Source: Escherichia coli (GTDB taxonomy: Bacteria; Pseudomonadota; Gammaproteobacteria; Enterobacterales; Enterobacteriaceae). Taken from it: a DNA stretch of 64,000 nt. The translations under genes and the position numbers were made by a program. Under the pieces are notes generated by a model. The model did not search any database. It saw only the letters and a program-made list of their open reading frames with translations, and had not been told where the DNA came from. This document shows positions 3,459 to 64,000 of the stretch, in pieces (positions within the stretch are counted from its first letter, which is position 1; each line of letters opens with the position of its first letter). Location of the stretch: assembly GCF_050320075.1 (NCBI RefSeq), contig NZ_CP190018.1, one strand, 5' to 3'.

Positions 3459-3664
3459 AAAAAAAAGCACCGCAATTAGGCGGTGCTACATTAATCACTA
3501 TGGACAGACAGGGTAAATGTACAGGAAGTGAAAAAAGGTAGCTTTGCTACCATGGTCTGAATCGCAGACCAATTGCAAACACAACAACACAACATCACAA
3601 CCGTAAGCCAAAAGTTCACCAGAACACGCATTCCGATAAAACTTTTCGTTCCGGCTCAGGAAGT
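3459..3664 (-). ncRNA. gcvB: GcvB small regulatory RNA (Hfq-dependent, represses amino-acid and peptide transporters)
   Basis: Reverse complement begins ACTTCCTGAGCCGGAACGAAAAG and ends in hairpin GCACCGCCTAATTGCGGTGC plus T8; GU-rich stretch GTTGTGATGTTGTGTTGTTGTGTTTGC present; divergent from gcvA. Confidence 0.9.
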
Positions 3665-3792: not shown

Positions 3793-4710
3793 ATGTCTAA
3801 ACGATTACCACCGCTAAATGCCTTACGAGTTTTTGATGCCGCAGCACGCCATTTAAGTTTCACTCGCGCAGCAGAAGAGCTTTTTGTGACCCAGGCCGCA
3901 GTAAGTCATCAAATCAAGTCTCTTGAGGATTTTCTGGGGCTAAAACTGTTCCGCCGCCGTAATCGTTCACTCCTGCTGACCGAGGAAGGGCAAAGCTATT
4001 TCCTCGATATCAAAGAGATATTTTCGCAATTAACCGAAGCGACGCGTAAACTCCAGGCCCGTAGCGCCAAGGGGGCGTTGACGGTCAGTTTACTCCCCAG
4101 TTTCGCCATTCATTGGTTGGTTCCGCGACTTTCCAGCTTTAATTCAGCTTATCCGGGAATTGACGTTCGAATCCAGGCGGTTGATCGTCAGGAAGATAAG
4201 CTGGCGGATGATGTTGATGTGGCGATATTTTATGGTCGGGGCAACTGGCCGGGGCTACGGGTGGAAAAACTGTACGCCGAATATTTATTGCCGGTGTGTT
4301 CGCCGCTACTGCTGACTGGCGAAAAACCCTTGAAGACCCCGGAAGATCTGGCTAAACATACGTTATTACATGATGCGTCGCGCCGTGACTGGCAGACATA
4401 TACCCGACAGTTGGGGTTAAATCATATCAACGTTCAGCAAGGGCCAATTTTTAGCCATAGCGCCATGGTGCTGCAAGCGGCTATCCACGGGCAGGGAGTG
4501 GCGCTGGCAAATAACGTGATGGCGCAATCTGAAATTGAGGCTGGACGTCTTGTTTGCCCGTTTAATGATGTACTGGTCAGTAAAAACGCTTTTTATCTGG
4601 TTTGTCATGACAGCCAGGCAGAACTGGGTAAAATAGCCGCCTTTCGCCAATGGATCCTGGCGAAAGCCGCTGCTGAACAAGAAAAATTCCGCTTTCGTTA
4701 TGAACAATAA
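3793..4710 (+). CDS. gcvA: LysR-family transcriptional regulator of the glycine cleavage system
   Basis: 305-aa ORF with N-terminal LysR HTH (LNALRVFDAAARHLSFTRAAEELFVTQAAVSHQIKSLE); recognised as GcvA. Confidence 0.92.
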   Translation: MSKRLPPLNALRVFDAAARHLSFTRAAEELFVTQAAVSHQIKSLEDFLGLKLFRRRNRSLLLTEEGQSYFLDIKEIFSQLTEATRKLQARSAKGALTVSLLPSFAIHWLVPRLSSFNSAYPGIDVRIQAVDRQEDKLADDVDVAIFYGRGNWPGLRVEKLYAEYLLPVCSPLLLTGEKPLKTPEDLAKHTLLHDASRRDWQTYTRQLGLNHINVQQGPIFSHSAMVLQAAIHGQGVALANNVMAQSEIEAGRLVCPFNDVLVSKNAFYLVCHDSQAELGKIAAFRQWILAKAAAEQEKFRFRYEQ

Positions 4711-10776: not shown

Positions 10777-10808
10777 TACAGATTCCTCACTTTATTCGGA
10801 AAATATGT

Positions 10809-12125
10809 TCAGTTAGTTGCCGTTTGAGAACGGAAACGGGCAAAGATAAAGATGACTGCGAAGCAGAGTGCCGGGATCAGTTCGGCAGTGGGGATGTTGC
10901 CCGCTGCATCACTGACAAACCCCATGACCGGAGTGACAATACCGCCGCCAATAATGGTCATAACGATGAAGGACGAACCGTATTTGGTGTCCTGGCCGAG
11001 ATTTTTAATGCCCAGCGAGAAGATTGTTGGGTACTGAATCGACATAAAGGCACTGCATAAAGTCAGGGCTATTAAGCCCACATGACCGCCAGCGAAGGCT
11101 GAGATCAGGCACAGTGCCATAGCGATTAATGCGTAGGCTGCCAGGACTTTGTGTGGTGCGAAGCGACTGATGAGCCAGGTACCGGTGAAACGACCAATAA
11201 AGAAGCACACCATGGTTCCGGTTAAATAGTTAGCGGCAAAGCCTGCGGTCATACCTGGAATTTCTTCTACAGCGTAGCGAATCAAATAGCTCCAGCAGGC
11301 CGTTTGCGCGCCGACATAGCAGAATTGCGCTAATACCGCCCAGCGCCAGTGACGAATACGCGCCAGACGAGAAAGCGATGCGGAGAACGATCCTTGTTTG
11401 GCGTCACTGTGATTATCACTCTGCAATGCCGGGAATTTCGTCAGCATGATCAGCAGGGCGACCAGTAACACGATAGCCACGATGATCATATAAGGTGTCT
11501 GTACCGATAATACCAGGCTGTGTTTATACGCACTCAATTGCTCTGGAGACATTTTATCGAGAACGTCTTGCGATTGATGTGGCACGTTAGACAAAATAAG
11601 ACTTTGTCCAAAGACAACCGCGATAATTGCGCCAAACGAGTTAAATGTTTGCGCAAGATTTAAGCGGAAGTGACCACTGCTTTCCGGCCCTAATACCGTA
11701 ACAAAAGGGTTTGCGGCAGTTTCCAGACAACCTAATCCGGCTGCAATAATAAATAGGCCAACTAAAAATAAGGTGTAGTTCATTATTTCTGCAGCAGGCC
11801 AGAATAATGCAGCGCCCAAGGCATATAAAAATAATCCGGTAATAATCCCTGCTTTATAACTGAGTTTTTTCATCAATATCCCAGCAGGGATTGGGATAAT
11901 GAAATAACCAAAGTAAAAGGCCGATTGGATCAGGCCAGCCTGGAAATTTGTCAGCGTAAAAGCCTGCTGGAATTGAGGTAATAAAATGTCGTTAAGGTTA
12001 TTGGCTACCGCCCAAAGAAAAAACAGTGAGCACAGCAGCGCGAATGGAATAATGTAACTTCTGCTTTGCCCTGCATCTTTATCTACCGCACGGTAACTCT
12101 GCGTTTGTATTGATGTGTTTCCCAT
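10809..12125 (-). CDS. fucP: L-fucose:H+ symporter (MFS)
   Basis: 438-aa polytopic membrane ORF recognised as FucP. Confidence 0.92.
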   Translation of the reverse strand: MGNTSIQTQSYRAVDKDAGQSRSYIIPFALLCSLFFLWAVANNLNDILLPQFQQAFTLTNFQAGLIQSAFYFGYFIIPIPAGILMKKLSYKAGIITGLFLYALGAALFWPAAEIMNYTLFLVGLFIIAAGLGCLETAANPFVTVLGPESSGHFRLNLAQTFNSFGAIIAVVFGQSLILSNVPHQSQDVLDKMSPEQLSAYKHSLVLSVQTPYMIIVAIVLLVALLIMLTKFPALQSDNHSDAKQGSFSASLSRLARIRHWRWAVLAQFCYVGAQTACWSYLIRYAVEEIPGMTAGFAANYLTGTMVCFFIGRFTGTWLISRFAPHKVLAAYALIAMALCLISAFAGGHVGLIALTLCSAFMSIQYPTIFSLGIKNLGQDTKYGSSFIVMTIIGGGIVTPVMGFVSDAAGNIPTAELIPALCFAVIFIFARFRSQTATN

Positions 12126-12671
12126 AGCATCCTCTTAGGTTCAGAAGCTTAAGCACGTAATCGGTTATGTTTTCAAAAGTGCAAAACCAGCGAGTTCGGG
12201 CTTCATATCAGTGAATATTTGCCTGTCAGAAATGAACTCATGGATTCATTTTCAAATAAAAAACGCTCTGTAATATGACGGCGGTCACACTTATTAGCTG
12301 GGAGGTGACTTTATGTGACTACCATCACTTTAATAATCGAAATTTCATGCCCGTTTCAGAAAATAAATCATAAAAAACACAAACCCGATGACCGTATTAA
12401 TTGTTTGTGCCGAAAACGGGCATTTCTGGCGAGGGGGAATGGAAAAATGACCGTTTTGATAAATATTTTTAAGAGCGGTCATTTTTAATAGGGTTATAAA
12501 AAGAGAACTTGCGGTTATTTACTATGATTAGTTGAACCAGGTCACAAAATATAAGCTTGTGAATTTCTTTCTGGTTAATCAGGAAGAAGATGGTGGGTAA
12601 TTAAACGGCTAATTCAATAGTGTGAAAGGAACAACATTATTGCCCTGTTTTGAATCAGAGAGAGGTAGCTA
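12126..12671. promoter_or_regulatory. divergent fucPIKUR / fucAO control region
   Basis: 546-bp AT-rich interval between divergently oriented fucP and fucA; individual FucR/CRP sites not mapped here. Confidence 0.6.
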
Positions 12672-13319
12672 ATGGAACGAAATAAACTTGCTCGTCAGAT
12701 TATTGACACTTGCCTGGAAATGACCCGCCTGGGACTGAACCAGGGGACAGCGGGTAACGTCAGTGTACGTTATCAGGATGGGATGCTGATTACGCCTACA
12801 GGTATTCCATATGAAAAACTGACGGAGTCGCATATTGTCTTTATTGATGGCAACGGTAAACATGAGGAAGGAAAGCTCCCCTCAAGCGAATGGCGTTTCC
12901 ATATGGCGGCCTATCAAAGCAGACCGGATGCCAACGCGGTTGTTCACAATCATGCCGTTCATTGCACGGCAGTTTCCATTCTTAACCGACCAATCCCCGC
13001 TATTCACTACATGATTGCGGCGGCTGGCGGTAATTCTATTCCTTGCGCGCCTTATGCGACCTTTGGAACACGTGAACTTTCTGAACATGTTGCGCTGGCT
13101 CTCAAAAATCGTAAGGCAACTTTGTTACAACATCATGGGCTTATCGCTTGTGAGGTGAATCTGGAAAAAGCGTTATGGCTGGCGCATGAAGTTGAAGTGC
13201 TGGCGCAACTTTACCTGACGACCCTGGCGATTACGGACCCGGTGCCAGTGCTGAGCGATGAAGAGATTGCCGTAGTGCTGGAGAAATTCAAAACCTATGG
13301 GTTACGGATTGAAGAGTAA
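12672..13319 (+). CDS. fucA: L-fuculose-phosphate aldolase (class II)
   Basis: 215-aa ORF recognised as FucA. Confidence 0.93.
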   Translation: MERNKLARQIIDTCLEMTRLGLNQGTAGNVSVRYQDGMLITPTGIPYEKLTESHIVFIDGNGKHEEGKLPSSEWRFHMAAYQSRPDANAVVHNHAVHCTAVSILNRPIPAIHYMIAAAGGNSIPCAPYATFGTRELSEHVALALKNRKATLLQHHGLIACEVNLEKALWLAHEVEVLAQLYLTTLAITDPVPVLSDEEIAVVLEKFKTYGLRIEE

Positions 13320-21833: not shown

Positions 21834-22200
21834 GTCGACAGGGAGTCAGACAACGAAGTGAACATCAGGATGATGACACTTCTGAAGGACACACCAGGAT
21901 GGTGTTTCAGGGAAAGGCTTCTGGATGAAGCGAAGAGGATGACGCAGGACGCGTTAAAGGACACCTCCAGGATGGAGAATGAGAACCGGTCAGGATGATT
22001 CGGTGGGTCAGGAAGGCCAGGGACACTTCAGGATGAAGTATCACATCGGGGTGGTGTGAGCAGGAAGCAATAGTTCAGGATGAACGATTGGCCGCAAGGC
22101 CAGAGGAAAAGTTGTCAAGGATGAGCAGGGAGCAACAAAAGTAGCTGGAATGCTGCGAAACGAACCGGGAGCACTGTGAATACAGTGCTCCCTTTTTTTA
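21834..22200 (+). ncRNA. csrB: CsrB sRNA (CsrA-sequestering)
   Basis: About 365 nt with reiterated CAGGATG/AGGATG/AGGA motifs (at least 8 exact AGGATG plus many GGA variants); ends in intrinsic terminator GGGAGCACTGTGAATACAGTGCTCCC plus T7 (22163-22199); 5' end approximate. Confidence 0.9.
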
Positions 22201-22244
22201 TTCCTGCTATCCTTCGCGGCAGTTTTTCTTATTGAGGTTGCTTT

Positions 22245-40950: not shown

Positions 40951-41622
40951 ATGCAGTACCCGATTAACGAGATGTTCCAGACCCTGCAAGGTGAGGGTTA
41001 CTTTACCGGCGTCCCCGCCATTTTTATTCGTTTACAGGGATGCCCGGTTGGCTGTGCCTGGTGCGACACCAAACACACCTGGGAAAAGCTTGAGGATCGG
41101 GAAGTCTCCCTTTTCAGCATTCTGGCGAAGACCAAAGAGAGTGATAAGTGGGGGGCGGCGAGCAGTGAAGACTTGCTGGCTGTCATTGGTCGCCAGGGAT
41201 ACACCGCGCGGCATGTGGTGATTACGGGTGGTGAGCCTTGCATTCATGATTTGCTGCCACTTACTGACCTGCTCGAAAAGAACGGTTTTAGCTGCCAGAT
41301 AGAAACCAGCGGTACTCATGAAGTGCGTTGTACGCCGAATACCTGGGTCACCGTGTCGCCAAAGCTAAATATGCGTGGTGGTTATGAAGTATTGTCGCAA
41401 GCCCTGGAGCGAGCTAACGAAATCAAACACCCAGTTGGACGCGTACGTGATATCGAAGCACTGGATGAATTGCTTGCGACGCTGACCGATGATAAACCGC
41501 GAGTCATTGCACTGCAGCCGATTAGCCAAAAGGATGATGCCACACGTTTGTGCATTGAAACCTGCATTGCGCGTAATTGGCGTTTGTCGATGCAAACACA
41601 TAAATATTTAAATATTGCCTGA
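40951..41622 (+). CDS. queE: 7-carboxy-7-deazaguanine synthase (radical SAM)
   Basis: 223-aa ORF with radical-SAM Cys motif (CPVGCAWCDTKHT); recognised as QueE (YgcF). Confidence 0.9.
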   Translation: MQYPINEMFQTLQGEGYFTGVPAIFIRLQGCPVGCAWCDTKHTWEKLEDREVSLFSILAKTKESDKWGAASSEDLLAVIGRQGYTARHVVITGGEPCIHDLLPLTDLLEKNGFSCQIETSGTHEVRCTPNTWVTVSPKLNMRGGYEVLSQALERANEIKHPVGRVRDIEALDELLATLTDDKPRVIALQPISQKDDATRLCIETCIARNWRLSMQTHKYLNIA

Positions 41623-41960
41623 TTACACATTTATAAGCGTTATAAATGGGTGGAACCTGTAAAGACTTCTACTCATTTATATTCTTTGTCGCCTCTAAAA
41701 AACCTCCATTTTGCCCATCCTGGACTAATCATTATCATTTTCTACAAATTCTGTGGCGTTAATTTTTCGTTGGAGTGAAAATTATTACGTCGGAGTTTGG
41801 TGGATTTTAGTCGGTATAGAATTACTTTAAATATTTGGCTTTTCAATCAATGAATTAAGTGCTCTTTAACATAATGGATGTGTTGTTTGTGTGTTTCTGT
41901 TAAGTTGGTAGATTGTGACTGACTTAAAAAATCAATAATTAATAATAGGTTATGTTTAGT
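41623..41960 (+). promoter_or_regulatory. CRISPR leader (AT-rich), inferred promoter side of the array
   Basis: 338-bp AT-rich non-coding region immediately 5' of the first consensus repeat; degenerate repeat lies at the opposite end of the array. Confidence 0.6.
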
Positions 41961-43209
41961 GAGTTCCCCGCGCCAGCGGGGATAAACCGTTTGCTGAGTG
42001 TGCATACACACTTGAACATCAGAGTTCCCCGCGCCAGCGGGGATAAACCGCTATCAGTAACAACCTGGTAAATATCGGTTTTGAGTTCCCCGCGCCAGCG
42101 GGGATAAACCGTTTTCGGGGCCATAAATGGCGCTCATTTATGTGAGTTCCCCGCGCCAGCGGGGATAAACCGGGAAAATAAACGCGTTATTCCTTGATGG
42201 GTGCGAGTTCCCCGCGCCAGCGGGGATAAACCGAGCAACAGGTATTTCATATGGCCTGCCGTGCTGAGTTCCCCGCGCCAGCGGGGATAAACCGGCCAGC
42301 GGCGCTGAGTACGACGACCTGATTAAGAGTTCCCCGCGCCAGCGGGGATAAACCGTCAATACAACAGCAATGCTGGAGCTGGAAAAAGAGTTCCCCGCGC
42401 CAGCGGGGATAAACCGTGGTGGGATAGCTGCTCTGCCAGCGTGTCGCGGAGTTCCCCGCGCCAGCGGGGATAAACCGTGGGCGCAGCTCATGTATTCCAA
42501 TAAGGATATGAGTTCCCCGCGCCAGCGGGGATAAACCGAGATTCGCGCAATGTACGGTAAAGACAGCACCGAGTTCCCCGCGCCAGCGGGGATAAACCGC
42601 CATTCTTGTTGTCGTTCATCAAGCGCAGGGGGAGTTTCCCGCGCCAGCGGGGATAAACCGTTTGTTTTGATGATTTATCAGTATATGAATTGGAGTTCCC
42701 CGCGCCAGCGGGGATAAACCGATTTTTGCGCGGCCTGCATGAAACCAGTGGCAAAGTTCCCCGCGCCAGCGGGGATAAACCGGTACCGTTGAGCAATGGT
42801 GGGTAAATGGTGCTGAGTTCCCCGCGCCAGCGGGGATAAACCGATTTAGATACGGCACACAGGAATGCGCTGGATGAGTTCCCCGCGCCAGCGGGGATAA
42901 ACCGCATGGGAGTCCAGATTACAAATTCCAGAATGGGAGTTCCCCGCGCCAGCGGGGATAAACCGCGCCAGTCTGAGGTTTTCCGGTCATACATCGTGAG
43001 TTCCCCGCGCCAGCGGGGATAAACCGACCGTTGCTACACATATGATCAGGCATGTGCCGAGTTCCCCGCGCCAGCGGGGATAAACCGGACGATGAGACGC
43101 CCTGGTGTGCCGCGTTCGTGAGTTCCCCGCGCCAGCGGGGATAAACCGCGTTTAGCTCCGCAATGTTGGATATCACTGATGAGTTCCCCGCACCAGCGGG
43201 AATAAACCA
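41961..43209 (+). CRISPR. type I-E CRISPR array, 21 repeats and 20 spacers
   Basis: 29-bp repeat GAGTTCCCCGCGCCAGCGGGGATAAACCG recurring with exact 61-bp periodicity (41961 + 61n); all spacers 32 bp and unique; last repeat (43181-43209) degenerate. Confidence 0.98.
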
Positions 43210-43680
43210 CCATATAACCCGTTATCTCTTTCTCAAGTTTTTATATTAGCAGTACTCGTATTAAGCAACATATCCACGTAACACCTCATGTTCAAAATAG
43301 CTCTCCATATATGAGAAGTTCACAATTATCGATACAAAAAATCAAATTTAATCAAAGTGTTATTTGTATAATCCTTAAACCGTTAAGAAATTTTAACATA
43401 TTATTTTTTTAATATTAATTAATGCCTGTTAATTTTTTCTTTAGAATAACAGTGTATTTTTTAAGCTTGTTATTCATTGATTAAGTAATAAATCTGGAAA
43501 TTTGTCTTTGTTTTGAGGCTAATGAGTGGTTTTACATAATCGCCTCTATACGCTGTTGATGAATAGTTCTTATGAATAAAGATATCCAGTTCATACTTTA
43601 AGTGAAAATTGATAAAGTGCGATTCGTATTGTCTTTTATTCTAAAGACATCGAGTGTAGTTAATATTCCTTGTAAAAACA

Positions 43681-43800
43681 GGGATAAACCGAACTAGTTA
43701 AAGTTTTTATTATGTTCCCTGCATCAGCGGGGATAAACCGGACTTGTTATCATTTTTTAAGTTGTCGAACTTATGTTCCCCGCGCCAGCGGGGATAACCA
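43681..43800 (+). CRISPR. remnant mini-array (partial repeat, two degenerate repeats, two spacers)
   Basis: GGGATAAACCG fragment (43681-43691), degenerate repeat ATGTTCCCTGCATCAGCGGGGATAAACCG (43712-43740), 32-bp spacer (43741-43772), degenerate repeat ATGTTCCCCGCGCCAGCGGGGATAACCA (43773-43800). Confidence 0.8.
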
Positions 43801-43846
43801 TTCAGGTATGTTCAGGCCGGGCAGTTTCCCGCCCGGTCTTCCTCAC

Positions 43847-45325
43847 TTACGCATTCGACCAGCTCTGGATCGAATCCGCATTCCCCAATTCCCCATGCAT
43901 CACTTCATACGATTTTTTCAGGATTACATCAGTATGTTTGGTTAACTCCTTGAAAATGCCTTTATTCATCGCGTTGTAGCGTTTGGCGTTGCTCTCAACA
44001 GGCATAAAGATATCTTTCACGCGAACCATTTTGTCGACAGCCGTTGCGTAATCCGGGTATAGCCCCAGACCTACCGCCGTATTAATCGCTGCCCCCAGGC
44101 TTGCACAACCATTAATGGCGTTACGGCGTGCCGGAAGGTTGAACACGTCGGCAAAAATCTGCATAAACAGATCGCTGTTCGAACCGCCGCCAGTAATGAT
44201 CACATGCTTTGCAAAGTGATTCATTTCATTACACATATTGTCGTAATTGTTCTTCAGCGTCAGCGCCACGCTTTCCAGTATCGAACGATATATCCATGCG
44301 TAATCCATGCTGGAATCAAAGCCAATCATAATCCCGCGTTTGTACGGTTCCCACGGATTGGTCAGCCAGTCCAGCACCGTCATCAGACCATTACAGCCTG
44401 GCGGCACACAAGACGCTTTTTTGTTGAGCAAATCTTCCGGTGAAAGATCCTGTGCTTTGGCATCCTGAATTAACGACTCGCCTAACATGTCGCGTAGCCA
44501 GCTCACCGTCCACATGCCTTTGCGAATACCGTAACCTTCATACAGCAAGGTTTGCGGAATAGAAGACATAATCGGCCAGTACGCTACCGGATCTTTCGGT
44601 AGTAATTTGCCGTTCATCATCAACGCGATGTAAGTGCCAAGAGAAATTACCGCAGTTTCATCATCCAGTAACCCGGCTCCCAGTGCTTCTACCGGTTTAT
44701 CACTGGTGGTACAAACAACCGGCAGCCCAGCCGGGAAATGTGTCGCCAGCGCGGCTTGAGGAGTGATATGCCCAAGAACAGTGCCCGGCATTTGCACATC
44801 AAACAGCATATGACGGGGGATATTAAACTTCTCCATGACTGCGGCATCTTCACTCCATGCCCAGGTCTTATAATCCACCGGCCACTGACCAAAATAGTTG
44901 GCGATATTGTCTTTAAACTCGCCGGTTAAGCGATGCGTCAGATAACCCGAAAAAGAGGTGACATATGCCACGTCAGGATTCGTATGTTCGTAAGGGCGTG
45001 TAACGCGTGCATCCTGCCAGCTAATCAACGGCGCAGCTGGCGTGCCATCGGCTTTCAATAACGCACGGCAGCAACGGATGGATCCCAGACCAATACCGAC
45101 AATATCTTCTTTATTTCCGGCAAACTGACTCATCAAATCGTGACCGGCAAAGCATAATGATGCCCATAAATCGTCGTCAGGATGTTCTGCGGTATCGGCA
45201 TCTGGCGTGTGCATCGGCTGCAATAAGCCTTTGCCTTCGCAAACCACATTACCTTCCAGATCGTACATCACCACTTTTGTGCTCTGACTTCCACCATCAA
45301 TCCCTATGATGTATTTTTTCGACAT
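43847..45325 (-). CDS. ygcE: FGGY-family carbohydrate kinase
   Basis: 492-aa ORF with FGGY kinase N- and C-terminal domain signatures. Confidence 0.85.
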   Translation of the reverse strand: MSKKYIIGIDGGSQSTKVVMYDLEGNVVCEGKGLLQPMHTPDADTAEHPDDDLWASLCFAGHDLMSQFAGNKEDIVGIGLGSIRCCRALLKADGTPAAPLISWQDARVTRPYEHTNPDVAYVTSFSGYLTHRLTGEFKDNIANYFGQWPVDYKTWAWSEDAAVMEKFNIPRHMLFDVQMPGTVLGHITPQAALATHFPAGLPVVCTTSDKPVEALGAGLLDDETAVISLGTYIALMMNGKLLPKDPVAYWPIMSSIPQTLLYEGYGIRKGMWTVSWLRDMLGESLIQDAKAQDLSPEDLLNKKASCVPPGCNGLMTVLDWLTNPWEPYKRGIMIGFDSSMDYAWIYRSILESVALTLKNNYDNMCNEMNHFAKHVIITGGGSNSDLFMQIFADVFNLPARRNAINGCASLGAAINTAVGLGLYPDYATAVDKMVRVKDIFMPVESNAKRYNAMNKGIFKELTKHTDVILKKSYEVMHGELGNADSIQSWSNA

Positions 45326-52350: not shown

Positions 52351-53124
<774 letters not shown>

Positions 53125-53228
53125 ATCAGCATACTTGTCCTTAGCCTTCTGCAGTGACAGCTGGTAGTACAGCGTGCTTCTGGCCAGCCCTGCAGCCTTT
53201 AACAGGTCAGACTGGCAGTGTCCGCACC

Positions 53229-53750
53229 TCAGGCTCCGGATGACTTTCGTTTTTTCTCCAGCTCCTGGCGCTTTTTTTCCAGGAGATGCTCCTGCATGGC
53301 TTTCAGATATGCATTTTCTGCGCGAAGATAACGTAGCTCATTCTTCATCTCTTCCGGCGTCATGTTTGCCTCGTTTTCATGGGTATCATCAGAACGGGTC
53401 ATGCTTTTCTCCTTCCTGCGCCTGATAAAGGCCTCATTACCAGATTTGCGGTAGCCTTTTATCCAGTTTTTAACCGTGTTGTGGCTGGGAATGTTAAACC
53501 GGGCAGCTACCCGGGGTAGAGACTCAGAATGCCCGAGAGCATAAAGAACCACGCAAAGTTTATCTTCAGGAGAATAGCTACGCTTGTGTCTGCAATCCAG
53601 TGCCCGAGGACCGTGAAGAAGAAAAAGATTAATCCAGTGTGAGAGGCTGGTGTGAGAAAGTTGAAAGAGTTTTGCCGTAGAAATGATGCCTGCATGACCA
53701 GCCAGGTAATGATTTACAGCGGCAAGTTTTACTTCAAATGAATGTTTCAT
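53229..53750 (-). CDS. IS3-family transposase OrfA (HTH DNA-binding, leucine-zipper region)
   Basis: ORF 53229..53759; likely ATG start at 53748-53750 (MKHSFEVKLAAVNHY) giving 173 aa. Confidence 0.85.
   Translation of the reverse strand: MKHSFEVKLAAVNHYLAGHAGIISTAKLFQLSHTSLSHWINLFLLHGPRALDCRHKRSYSPEDKLCVVLYALGHSESLPRVAARFNIPSHNTVKNWIKGYRKSGNEAFIRRRKEKSMTRSDDTHENEANMTPEEMKNELRYLRAENAYLKAMQEHLLEKKRQELEKKRKSSGA
53271..53278 (-). other. candidate -1 programmed ribosomal frameshift site (A AAA AAG)
   Basis: Minus-strand A7G run about 45 nt upstream of the orfA stop, at the orfA/orfB overlap. Confidence 0.6.
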
Positions 53751-61128: not shown

Positions 61129-61341
61129 ATTTTGCGAGCAGCATTCCTGATTTTAAACGTGAACGCCGCTGGAAGAATTATCAGGTATAGAATGGCGTTG
61201 GGTGCTTGAGGCTGTCTGGCGTTAAGCATTCGCGAGGTTCCAGATGGACAAAAGCCCCAGGCGATATTTCTATCAACCTGAGGCCAGCGTTCGAACCTAA
61301 GCAATTCGAATGTTAGTCTCTTCTTTGCAGGGAGGCAAGAC

Positions 61342-61494
61342 ATGCTGACAAAATATGCCCTTGTGGCAATCATCGTACTGTGTTGTACAGTACTGGGATT
61401 CACGCTGATGGTAGGCGACTCGTTGTGTGAGTTGAGTATCAGAGAACGTGGTATGGAGTTTAAGGCAGTTCTCGCTTACGAATCGAAGAAGTAG
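61342..61494 (+). CDS. Hok-family type I toxin (50 aa, HokE/HokX-like)
   Basis: ATG 61342 preceded by GGGAGG; product [50 protein letters not shown] has one TM helix and the conserved Hok C-terminal region; below the ORF-track size cutoff. Confidence 0.8.
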
Positions 61495-61688
61495 CCACCA
61501 CGCGGGGGTAAAACCCCGCGTATTGAATTGTGATGGTTTGGTCTCCTGCACCCTTTTTTAATTTATATTGTTTATGTGAATATTATGCCTATGTTTATTA
61601 TTCATATATATTACGGATGAAAATTATTTGATTATTCATAATGTAAATATTTTATTGAACGATATATATCACAGATAATTTTTAATAT
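61495..61688 (+). promoter_or_regulatory. AT-rich cas3 upstream region
   Basis: About 190 bp of more than 75 percent A+T immediately upstream of cas3; expected H-NS-silenced promoter from established knowledge of I-E cas loci. Confidence 0.4.
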
Positions 61689-64000
61689 ATGCGTAAATAT
61701 CCTTTAAGTTTACTGAAGGATAAAAATATTGTGACTTTTTTTGATTTCTGGGGAAAAACCCGACGCGGCGAGAAAGACGGGGGCGACGACTATCACCTTC
61801 TTTGCTGGCATTCGCTGGATGTAGCCGCGATGGGCTATTTAATGGTTAAAAGCAATTGCTTCGGGCTGACTGACTATTTTCGTCAACTAGGTTTCGCTGA
61901 TACGGAGCAGGCAGCACAATTTTTCGCCTGGCTATTGTGCTGGCACGATACTGGAAAATTTGCCCGCTCTTTTCAGCAACTTTACCTGCACCCACAACTC
62001 AAGGTTCCGGAAGGCGCAAGAAAGAATTACGAAAAGATCTCTCATTCAACGCTGGGCTACTGGCTGTGGCATCATTATTTAAGTGAATACGAAGAATTGC
62101 TTCCTTCATCTTCACTCTCTCCGCGCAAACTTAAACGGGTGATGGAGATGTGGATGCCCATGACTACCGGGCATCATGGTCGGCCCCCTGACCGTATTGA
62201 TGAACTGGATAATTTTCTGCCTGAAGACAAAGCTGCCGCACGAGATTTTCTCCTTGAAATCAAGGTACTGTTTCCGCTCATCGAGATCCCCGCATTCTGG
62301 GATGATGACGAGGGCATTGAACTTTTAAAACAACTTTCCTGGTATATCTCTGCAACCGTCGTACTCGCAGACTGGACGGGATCGTCAACGCGGTTTTTTC
62401 CACGCGTTGCACAGGCAATGGATATTAAAGATTACTGGCAGAAGGCTTTAGTTCAGGCTCAAAACGCCTTAACCGTCTTTCCTCCAAAAGCACAAACCGC
62501 GCCTTTCACCGGAATTAATACGCTGTTTCCTTTTATTGAGCACCCGACACCGTTACAGCAAAAGGTGCTGGATCTGGATATCAGCCAGCCTGGGCCACAG
62601 TTATTTATTCTGGAGGATGTGACTGGCGCAGGTAAAACAGAAGCGGCGCTTATCCTGGCCCACAGGTTGATGGCTGCGGGGAAAGCACAGGGTTTGTTTT
62701 TTGGCCTGCCAACAATGGCAACGGCCAATGCCATGTACGATCGGCTGGTAAAAACCTGGCTTGCTTTCTATTCGCCAGAATCCCGCCCCAGCCTGGTGCT
62801 GGCACACAGTGCCCGCACATTAATGGACCGCTTTAATGAATCACTCTGGTCCGGTGATTTAGTCGGGTCAGAAGAACCGGATGAACAAGCGTTCAGTCAG
62901 GGATGTGCGGCCTGGTTTGCCGACAGTAACAAGAAGGCGTTGCTGGCTGAAATTGGCGTCGGCACGCTGGATCAGGCGATGATGGCGGTGATGCCGTTTA
63001 AACATAATAATCTGCGGCTTCTGGGACTGAGTAACAAAATCCTGCTGGCTGATGAGATCCATGCCTGTGACGCTTACATGTCGTGCATTCTTGAAGGATT
63101 GATTGAGCGGCAGGCGCGTGGAGGAAACAGCGTTATTTTGCTTTCTGCCACGTTATCTCAACAGCAGCGCGACAAACTCGTTGCTGCCTTTGCGCGTGGT
63201 GCAGAGGGCCAGCAAGAAGCTCCGTTCCTGGAAAAGGATGATTACCCCTGGCTGACGCACGTTACGAAATCGGATGTGCATTCACACCGGGTAGCAACGC
63301 GCAAAGACGTTGAGCGTAGCGTGAGCGTGGGTTGGCTTCATAGCGAACAAGAATGTATTGCGCGTATCGAATCGGCAGTAAGTCAGGGGAAATGCATCGC
63401 CTGGATCCGGAATTCTGTCGATGACGCTATTAAGGTTTATCGTCAGTTGCTTGCCCGCGGCGTCATTCCTGCTTCCAGCCTTTCTCTGTTTCATAGCCGC
63501 TTTGCTTTTAGCGATCGCCAGCGAATTGAAACGGAAACGCTGGCACGCTTCGGTAAAAGTTGTAGTTTACAGAGATCATCGCAAGTCATTGTTTGTACAC
63601 AAGTAATTGAACAAAGTGTGGATATTGACCTGGACGAAATGATATCCGACCTGGCCCCTGTTGATTTGCTGATCCAACGGGCGGGGCGATTACAGCGGCA
63701 TATCCGCGATATTAATGGTCAGTTAAAGCGTGACGGAAAAGACGAGCGTTCCCCTCCTGAATTGCTGATTCTGGCCCCCGTCTGGGACGACGCTCCAGGT
63801 GACGAATGGTTCGGCAGTGCCATGCGTAACAGTGCATATGTCTATCCCGATCATGGACGAATCTGGCTGACGCAGCGTGTACTGCGTGAGCAAGGCGCGA
63901 TTCAAATGCCACACGCAGCCCGCCTTCTTATTGAATCAGTCTACGGTGAGGACGTGGTAATGCCGGAAGGATTTGCCCGCAGCGAGCAGGAACAAGTGGG
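61689..64000 (+). CDS. cas3: type I-E Cas3 (HD nuclease plus DExH helicase), 3' end outside window
   Basis: Frame open from ATG 61689 (alternative GTG 61731 with AGGA upstream) to the window end; HD-domain motifs (HLLCWHSLDVAAMG, LLCWHDTGKF), Walker A GAGKTEAA, DExH-like LADEIHACD. Confidence 0.9.
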   Translation, partial: MRKYPLSLLKDKNIVTFFDFWGKTRRGEKDGGDDYHLLCWHSLDVAAMGYLMVKSNCFGLTDYFRQLGFADTEQAAQFFAWLLCWHDTGKFARSFQQLYLHPQLKVPEGARKNYEKISHSTLGYWLWHHYLSEYEELLPSSSLSPRKLKRVMEMWMPMTTGHHGRPPDRIDELDNFLPEDKAAARDFLLEIKVLFPLIEIPAFWDDDEGIELLKQLSWYISATVVLADWTGSSTRFFPRVAQAMDIKDYWQKALVQAQNALTVFPPKAQTAPFTGINTLFPFIEHPTPLQQKVLDLDISQPGPQLFILEDVTGAGKTEAALILAHRLMAAGKAQGLFFGLPTMATANAMYDRLVKTWLAFYSPESRPSLVLAHSARTLMDRFNESLWSGDLVGSEEPDEQAFSQGCAAWFADSNKKALLAEIGVGTLDQAMMAVMPFKHNNLRLLGLSNKILLADEIHACDAYMSCILEGLIERQARGGNSVILLSATLSQQQRDKLVAAFARGAEGQQEAPFLEKDDYPWLTHVTKSDVHSHRVATRKDVERSVSVGWLHSEQECIARIESAVSQGKCIAWIRNSVDDAIKVYRQLLARGVIPASSLSLFHSRFAFSDRQRIETETLARFGKSCSLQRSSQVIVCTQVIEQSVDIDLDEMISDLAPVDLLIQRAGRLQRHIRDINGQLKRDGKDERSPPELLILAPVWDDAPGDEWFGSAMRNSAYVYPDHGRIWLTQRVLREQGAIQMPHAARLLIESVYGEDVVMPEGFARSEQEQV

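Follow-up and report, generated by a model that had tools for sequence, protein, structure and literature searches.

A probable CRISPR2.2 mini-array with low between-strain variability at the ygcE-proximal end of the Escherichia coli CRISPR-II locus

The CRISPR-II locus of Escherichia coli holds either CRISPR2.2 and CRISPR2.3, placed 0.5 kb apart, or one fused CRISPR2.2-3 array (PMC3903273, PMC3737337). CRISPR2.2 has been described as three repeats with two invariable spacers that lie 0.5 kb from CRISPR2.3 and have no leader of their own (PMC4489801, PMC3903273, PMC3737337). Leaders adjoin CRISPR2.1 and CRISPR2.3 only (PMC3903273, PMC3737337), and the CRISPR2.3 promoter has been placed in the leader 2.3 region (PMC3903273). 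CRISPR2.2 also occurs in BL21, a strain devoid of cas genes (PMC3737337). The CRISPR2.x nomenclature stems from Díez-Villaseñor and co-workers and is used in PMC3903273, PMC3737337, and PMC4489801; PMC4524480 applies the name 'CRISPR2.2' to another locus and was set aside. A ChIP-seq study reported weak expression of the CRISPR-II crRNAs (PMC5904413), and Shmakov et al. 2023 (PMC10120712) described a repeat-like element between cas3 and cse1 of K-12 as a putative regulatory mini-array.

The window analyzed here, i.e., the whole 64,000-nucleotide stretch of E. coli DNA, contains a locus in which ORFs and synteny give the order queE, leader, CRISPR2.3, an AT-rich gap of ~0.45 kb, CRISPR2.2, and ygcE. 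Its flanking genes, queE (ygcF) and ygcE, identify it as the E. coli CRISPR-II locus. The features referred to throughout are as follows.

40951-41622, plus strand: queE (ygcF), left boundary gene of the CRISPR-II locus; a 223-aa ORF, annotated as queE in syntenic E. coli records
41623-41960, plus strand: leader 2.3 and upstream intergenic DNA; 31% GC; directly 5' of the first repeat; aligns with leader 2.3 of other strains
41961-43209, plus strand: CRISPR2.3 main array; 21 repeats and 20 spacers of 32 nt, period 61
43210-43662: AT-rich gap; 453 nt, 27% GC, no ORF of at least 40 aa
43663-43691, plus strand: repeat R1, ATATTCCTTGTAAAAACAGGGATAAACCG; 18/29 consensus matches, perfect GGGATAAACCG 3' part
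43692-43711, plus strand: spacer S1, AACTAGTTAAAGTTTTTATT; 20 nt (32 minus 12), 15% GC
43712-43740, plus strand: repeat R2, ATGTTCCCTGCATCAGCGGGGATAAACCG; 24/29 matches, stem kept with one G-U pair, loop AUCA
43741-43772, plus strand: spacer S2, GACTTGTTATCATTTTTTAAGTTGTCGAACTT; 32 nt, 28% GC
43773-43800, plus strand: repeat R3, ATGTTCCCCGCGCCAGCGGGGATAA-CCA; 24/29 ungapped matches, perfect stem-loop
43815-43838: GC-rich hairpin CCGGGC...GCCCGG between R3 and the ygcE stop; conserved in E. albertii
43847-45325, minus strand: ygcE, FGGY-family carbohydrate kinase of 492 aa; stop codon at 43847-43849; convergent with the arrays

We assign the feature, with a probability of roughly 85%, to CRISPR2.2, a fixed mini-array of three repeats and two spacers at that end of the type I-E CRISPR-II locus which is nearest ygcE. 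It has the same flanking genes as published E. coli CRISPR2.2, the same distance of 0.45-0.5 kb to CRISPR2.3, three repeats, and two invariable spacers. Differences from the K-12 copy are slight: over R1-R3 the two align with a single mismatch (position 43785 in the R3 loop, C here and T in K-12), and the main array here, with its 21 repeats, is longer. Synteny, this one-nucleotide difference, and the literature descriptions thus bear out the original prediction that a CRISPR2.2-type remnant lies here, oriented like the main array. The mini-array is an already known element, ordinary apart from its low variability between strains. Of 5,426 complete E. coli genomes, 4,533 carry the segment 43210-43830, invariably on the chromosome, and 4,123 have it at nearly full length; the mini-array itself is full-length in 4120-4123 of the 5426 and absent from ~24%. 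None of the records examined carries a PGAP annotation of the mini-array, the main array alone being marked. A practical use of the present description lies in this omission by automated annotation.

The mini-array (43663-43800) comprises three type I-E repeats, all on the plus strand like those of the main array; it begins 453 nt past the main array and ends 46 nt short of the ygcE stop. In the 29-nt frame, the type I-E consensus repeat reads GAGTTCCCCGCGCCAGCGGGGATAAACCG, and the last main-array repeat (43181-43209) is itself degenerate, GAGTTCCCCGCACCAGCGGGAATAAACCA. R2 and R3 follow each other at 61 nt and R1 and R2 at 49 nt, the shorter spacing arising because S1 has only 20 nt. Both spacers are also poorer in GC than those of the main array, which average 49%. 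Two degenerate repeats bracketing a full 32-nt spacer, accompanied by a short spacer of about 20 nt, had been predicted, and R2, R3, S2, and S1 correspond to this description. The first element, originally taken for only a partial 3' repeat fragment, is instead a full-length, degenerate repeat whose hairpin is kept by compensatory changes: R1 retains the 7-bp stem and the 4-nt loop through two double changes and one G-U pair. A gap of 470 bp is accordingly right when measured to the obvious 3' fragment and shortens to 453 nt when R1 is counted whole. Nor does the array abut the ygcE stop codon, as had been thought; the 46 nt between them accommodate the GC-rich hairpin.

A hairpin in the canonical register is kept in R1, R2, and R3, with 96.8% of cells paired according to pair counts. 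R1 adopts the stem (7 bp) and loop (4 nt) of the canonical repeat without a shift in register, at -7.9 kcal/mol, a stability equaled by 2 of 200 shuffles. The changes in the R1 stem are all GC-to-AT transitions, located on both arms, and could be a by-product of AT-biased decay. Any selection on the hairpin appears lenient rather than strict, as a natural R2 T9>A variant, carried by strains CV839-06 and 4012, breaks a stem pair. The GCATCAGC variant with loop AUCA is common to R2 and the penultimate repeat of K-12 CRISPR2.1, which fits an old repeat.

The relatives of this locus were charted by scanning 80 queE loci, with one genome per species. In E. albertii, the leader, three repeats, and an R3-type terminal repeat lead directly into the ygcE flank; in E. 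whittamii, a single R3-type repeat follows the leader; a divergent "E. coli" record lacks an array altogether. Fused E. coli arrays (UTME-7, PMV-1, and 06-00048) end in GAGTTCCCCGCG(T/C)(C/T)AGCGGGGATAACCAT, after which the R3 flank begins. The fused CRISPR2.2-3, E. albertii, and E. whittamii arrays have the same terminal repeat (...GGGGATAACCAT) and the same ygcE-side flank as the mini-array, and are without the gap, R1, S1, R2, and S2. They differ from R3 at the start of that repeat, which reads GAGTT or GGGTT in them and ATGTT here. The 3' end of R3, ATAA-CCA, has one A deleted. Judged from these shared sequences, R3, missing A included, represents the ancestral terminal repeat of the CRISPR-II locus. 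The ~0.6-kb segment made up of the gap, R1, S1, R2, and S2 is E. coli-specific in this sample. In most E. coli, the 453-nt AT-rich segment and two further degenerate repeat-spacer units stand between R3 and the active, leader-driven CRISPR2.3. The split could go back to an insertion ancestral to E. coli, or other lineages could repeatedly have lost the segment by deletion between repeats; two informative outgroups were available for this comparison. As in the degenerate repeats of ordinary trailer ends, substitutions have accumulated far from the leader. Unlike in ordinary trailer ends, degeneration is strongest in the repeat closest to the main array (R1) and not in the final one, and a 453-nt non-repeat segment interrupts the series.

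What sets the mini-array apart is its low variability among strains. A nearly invariant block of 247 nt spans the last 111 nt of the gap and R1-S1-R2-S2-R3, with only 4 variable sites among 11 diverse strains that were picked to span the range of identities; S1 and S2 are identical in all 11. Over 43512-43800, nucleotide diversity (pi) in these strains was 0.008-0.016. Pi was further resolved by segment in the same 11 strains, and queries of 247 nt each were compared with all complete genomes at a threshold of at least 99% identity to the window allele.

First two thirds of the gap: pi 0.046-0.072
Last third of the gap: pi 0.016
R1-R3: pi 0.008
46 nt from R3 to the ygcE stop: pi 0.058
ygcE third codon positions: pi 0.067
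43552-43798, nearly invariant block: 3,563 of 4,162 genomes at or above 99% (86%), most others at 95-99%
43265-43511, left part of the gap (gap-left): 294 of 4,089 genomes, most others at 90-95%
43900-44146, ygcE: 300 of 5,369 genomes, most others at 90-95%
41714-41960, leader 2.3: 326 of 4,553 genomes, most others at 80-90%

The window allele is therefore matched at this threshold by 86% of the genomes in the block and by 6-7% in the equal-sized flanks, and, outside the block, the haplotype of the window is divergent and in the minority across the entire locus. The outgroups lack gap-left just as they lack the block, and equal age is therefore to be expected for the two. Equal age combined with this contrast in diversity points indirectly to constraint on the block. 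'Decayed', the word originally chosen for the mini-array, suits its degenerate repeats and does not suit a sequence almost frozen across E. coli in which all three hairpins are kept. The accompanying notion of a 'second array' is likewise doubtful, R3 being most readily seen as the ancestral terminal repeat of a single CRISPR-II array, as found in E. albertii, E. whittamii, and fused E. coli arrays.

Of the traits of a functional type I-E array, the mini-array shows the repeat match (18, 24, and 24 of 29) and the Cas6e-type hairpin. No adjacent leader with a promoter or IHF site was recognized in the sequence, nor any strain-to-strain spacer variation of the kind generated by polarized acquisition, both spacers being the same in all strains examined. 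The mini-array would no longer acquire spacers, because Cas1-Cas2 integration in E. coli requires the leader-repeat junction. Its transcription would depend on read-through from the CRISPR2.3 promoter or on a weak promoter in the gap. A consensus promoter scan returned sites no more numerous than in shuffles. The -10 element of the sole plus-strand promoter predicted near the mini-array (43513-43540) reads CATAAC in K-12; as this element is not conserved, the promoter was rejected as a driver of the block. With hairpin, cleavage site, and 5' handle all intact in R2 and R3, a normal-shaped S2 crRNA could be released if the mini-array is transcribed in the presence of Cas6e; its S1 counterpart would lack 12 nt of the normal length. 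Targets were found for neither spacer: S1 is too short to search, and S2 gave no protospacer in phage or plasmid collections, where its best phage match had E=0.3 and its perfect 'plasmid' matches were all to 4.8-4.9-Mb E. coli records. With no target known for either spacer, an inactive relic is the default reading. The mini-array is most likely a leaderless array end in which spacer acquisition has ended. The label 'inactive relic' nonetheless sits uneasily with a sequence that is 5-8 times less variable than neighboring neutral-like sites.

The origin of the gap was approached from several sides. No gap-like sequence occurs in the 80 enterobacterial queE loci; no terminal inverted repeats were found that would indicate a MITE or IS; and matches in plasmids were only to mislabeled E. 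coli chromosomes. A string of decayed repeat-spacer units was discarded as an explanation, TRF having found nothing in the gap and a single match being marginal (S2 versus 43466-43486, 8/500 before correction for 14 tests, with an indel). R1-S1 as a decayed duplicate of R2-S2 was also discarded, as the S1-S2 similarity was equaled or beaten by 231 of 2000 shuffles. Two features of the gap were noticed on inspection. A perfect match to the IHF-type motif WATCAANNNNTTR was read by eye at 43351-43363, and AATCCTTAAACCG at 43370-43382 resembles a repeat with its stem deleted. K-12 has GATTCTTAAATCG at this place, and AATCCTTAAACCG is therefore not used as evidence of a stem-less repeat.

Several other explanations of the feature deserve consideration. 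Chance matching in AT-rich DNA can hardly be credited as the source of the repeat-like segments. Window shuffles give an expectation of 0 matches with at most 3 mismatches for R2 and R3, and nhmmer E-values are ~3e-7 and ~5e-7, which refutes chance for both. R1 taken by itself, with 18/29 matches, is at a level that occurs 10 times among 29-mers in ~124 kb of background (18 or more matches), or ~0.07 times expected in the gap. This score, however, was reached by 0 of 300 shuffles of the region, and R1 lies in register, on the same strand, and 49 nt 5' of R2, its hairpin is canonical, and its 11-nt 3' part is free of mismatches; moreover, the entire arrangement is conserved across E. coli. Scarcely more probable is an independent, still active second array that uses the AT-rich gap as its leader. 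The gap is indeed AT-rich like leaders (27% versus 31% GC), and strict local alignment relates 29 nt of it (43335-43363) to the repeat-proximal end of leader 2.3, a similarity reached by 6 of 200 shuffles (p ~0.03) and overlapping the WATCAANNNNTTR match. Yet the similarity lies 300 nt from R1 and is insignificant otherwise: with lenient gap costs, the best alignment between the gap and leaders was attained by 422 of 1000 shuffles (p=0.42), and an nhmmer profile of seven leaders, including leaders 2.3 of five strains and K-12 leader 2.1, returned E-values of 0.6 or worse for the gap, with R2 and R3 as the sole significant matches. Leader homology was thus dismissed as not robust, and the sequence lends no support to the leader-like gap of the original prediction. 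An active array is also at odds with spacers that are invariant over thousands of genomes (see also PMC4489801), with R1, its supposed leader-proximal repeat, being the most degenerate of the three, and with a literature that places leaders only at CRISPR2.1 and CRISPR2.3 (PMC3903273, PMC3737337).

The remaining alternatives concern the low diversity of the block. It might have arisen without selection if the flanks have been repeatedly replaced by divergent donors, through array exchange on the left and in the variable ygc sugar cluster on the right, while the block keeps clonal-frame diversity. We regard this as conceivable but doubtful. It would account for the minority haplotype at the leader, gap-left, and ygcE, where ~300 genomes reach 99% identity and the majority lies at 80-95%, as well as for haplotype blocks that switch at R3 in CV839-06 and 4012; CRISPR repeats are known recombination sites (cf. 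the fused arrays), and the ygcE-queD segment is deleted in some strains. Against it, gap-left and the block, both absent from the outgroups and expected to be of the same age, differ 5-8 fold in diversity, and at least five distinct flank haplotypes carry one and the same block. Rather unlikely, in our assessment, is conservation for a non-CRISPR reason, for instance as a terminator or insulator between the convergent CRISPR2.3 and ygcE transcripts, as a site bound by a nucleoid protein such as H-NS, or as a small RNA not yet described, with the repeats kept merely by lying inside the block. Conservation does begin 111 nt 5' of R1, in non-repeat DNA, and the block lies between convergent transcription units and forms four consecutive hairpins, its fold being more stable than that of shuffles on either strand (z = -4.9 and -4.2). 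The repeat hairpins themselves, however, supply much of this z-score. There is no Rfam family match (nothing above chance in 43100-43900) and no hairpin with a clear U-run, the terminator scan of 43210-43860 being empty, and the small ORFs in the block were rejected as unsupported, among them one of 31 aa at 43602-43697 with a GTG start, no visible Shine-Dalgarno sequence, and a start-destroying polymorphism. Less probable still is a block kept by selection as a regulatory mini-array outside the cas locus, in which CRISPR2.2 and the conserved 111 nt would give rise to crRNA-like RNAs, and partial (seed) pairing of their fixed pseudo-spacers would bring Cascade to a chromosomal site. CreA antitoxin RNAs act in this manner, and the putative regulatory mini-array between E. 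coli cas3 and cas8e is proposed to do so too. The cas3-cas8e mini-array (PMC10120712) and CreA-type antitoxins resemble CRISPR2.2 in their degenerate, hairpin-keeping repeats, GGGATAAACCG 3' part, short fixed spacer-like sequence, and lack of an IHF-type leader; they differ from it in lying inside cas loci and in having a spacer with a PAM-flanked match of at least 10 nt to a nearby promoter, CRISPR2.2 lying ~18 kb from cas3 and S1 and S2 having shown no such match in the regions scanned. Type I-E mini-arrays with degenerate repeats have been described, E. coli included (PMC10120712), and Cascade binds chromosomal sites with AAG and a 5-10-nt seed alone (PMC5904413). Both R1-S1-R2 and R2-S2-R3 consist of two degenerate repeats flanking a fixed spacer-like sequence. 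Further in favor of a regulatory role, the block is nearly invariant while its flanks, ygcE coding DNA included, differ by 5-11%; three hairpins are kept, as are the AUAAACCG 5' handles of R1 and R2; R1 degenerates in the style of the K-12 cas3-cse1 repeat-like element; and S1 is exactly 12 nt short, i.e., two Cas7 steps. On the other side, the 64-kb window and the K-12 cas3-cse1, cas3-cysH, and CRISPR-I regions hold no PAM-flanked seed match of at least 10 nt to S1 or S2, the best local one (AAG+AACTAtT, 7 nt, 43549-43571, minus strand) being near chance level. The mini-array lies outside the cas locus, ~18 kb from cas3, which starts within the window at ~61689; ~24% of E. coli genomes are without it, as are E. 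albertii and E. whittamii; BL21 carries it yet has no cas genes (PMC3737337); a natural variant has a broken R2 stem; and the predicted promoter at 43513-43540 is not conserved, with CATAAC as the K-12 -10 element. As for a CreT-type toxin gene, the only candidate is a 31-aa GTG ORF (43602-43697) with no visible Shine-Dalgarno sequence and with two polymorphisms, which abolish its start codon or alter an amino acid.

To conclude, CRISPR2.2 remains the preferred identification of this feature, and two aspects of our analysis go slightly past published descriptions: the ancestry of R3 together with the 0.6-kb segment that is E. coli-specific in this sample, and a block less variable than its surroundings, which is a modest lead. 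Should this conservation be due to selection, an array regarded as dead would turn out to be functional, at a time when regulatory crRNA-like RNAs are a current topic.

Judged by sequence identity, the whole CRISPR-II locus of the window is a minority, divergent haplotype. Leader 2.3 (41714-41960), the left part of the AT-rich gap (43265-43511) and ygcE (43900-44146) reach at least 99% identity in only ~300 of >4,000 genomes, with the majority being 80-95% identical to the window at these three segments; for the central 247-nt block (43552-43798), which comprises the end of the gap and the CRISPR2.2 mini-array, 86% of genomes are at least 99% identical to it. SCPM-O-B-8794 (locus L012, 6669-6830), which represents a separate GTDB species though it is named 'E. 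coli', has a queE-ygcE interval of only ~160 nt. Leader, repeat and gap are all absent from this interval, and with them the entire CRISPR-II locus.

Gene content next to the locus also differs between strains. In E. coli UTME-7 (L005), APEC E18005 (L096) and BS15R-A (L097), a truncated ygcE is followed directly by queD, and therefore the ~12-kb yqcE-ygcN sugar gene cluster that adjoins CRISPR-II is deleted; the CRISPR2.2 block is intact in two of the three. Elsewhere in the window, the fucI-fucA interval spans ~1.9 kb (10789-12693), versus a ~6.8-kb island in CUVET16-819 carrying an ABC sugar transporter, an FGGY kinase and a LacI regulator. The window further contains the following RNAs, genes and mobile element.

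3459-3664, minus strand: GcvB (Rfam match, gathering level)
21843-22202, plus strand: CsrB (Rfam match, gathering level)
~52400-53750: IS1397 (IS3 family), between ygcQ and ygcP, inferred because the window is 99.7% colinear with NZ_CP150989.1, whose annotation includes this element
61200-61357, plus strand: sok antitoxin RNA (Rfam match, gathering level)
~61342-61494: predicted Hok/Gef coding sequence, placed by synteny
~61689-64000: start of type I-E cas3, which continues past the window end

The sok match is part of a hok/sok-type locus in the cysH-cas3 interval. In NZ_CP150989.1 an IS421 copy separates hok/sok from cas3; the window has none there (junction near 61505-61516). Because cas3 starts at ~61689, the cas-E genes are probably present in the window strain; CRISPR2.1 lies past the window end.

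In K-12 (NZ_CP011342.2), the cas3-cse1 intergenic region, outside the window, holds a lone repeat-like element, CCTTCCCTACTTAAGTAGGGATAAACCG (L098, 4353-4380). It is oriented antisense to the cas genes, and two compensatory double changes preserve its stem, a style of degeneration shared with R1, the most degenerate CRISPR2.2 repeat. This element has already been described as a putative regulatory mini-array (Shmakov et al. 2023, PMC10120712).

In the window's main array, a C>T change (GTTTCCCGCG...) in a single internal repeat (42634-42660) converts the outermost C-G stem pair into a U-G wobble; the remaining internal repeats are all identical. At the trailer end of K-12 CRISPR2.1 (L010), the penultimate repeat reads GTGTTCCCCGCATCAGCGGGGATAAACCG, and its loop variant GCATCAGC is also that of CRISPR2.2 R2. 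This sequence match suggests that GCATCAGC may be an old repeat variant common to the trailer ends of both loci.
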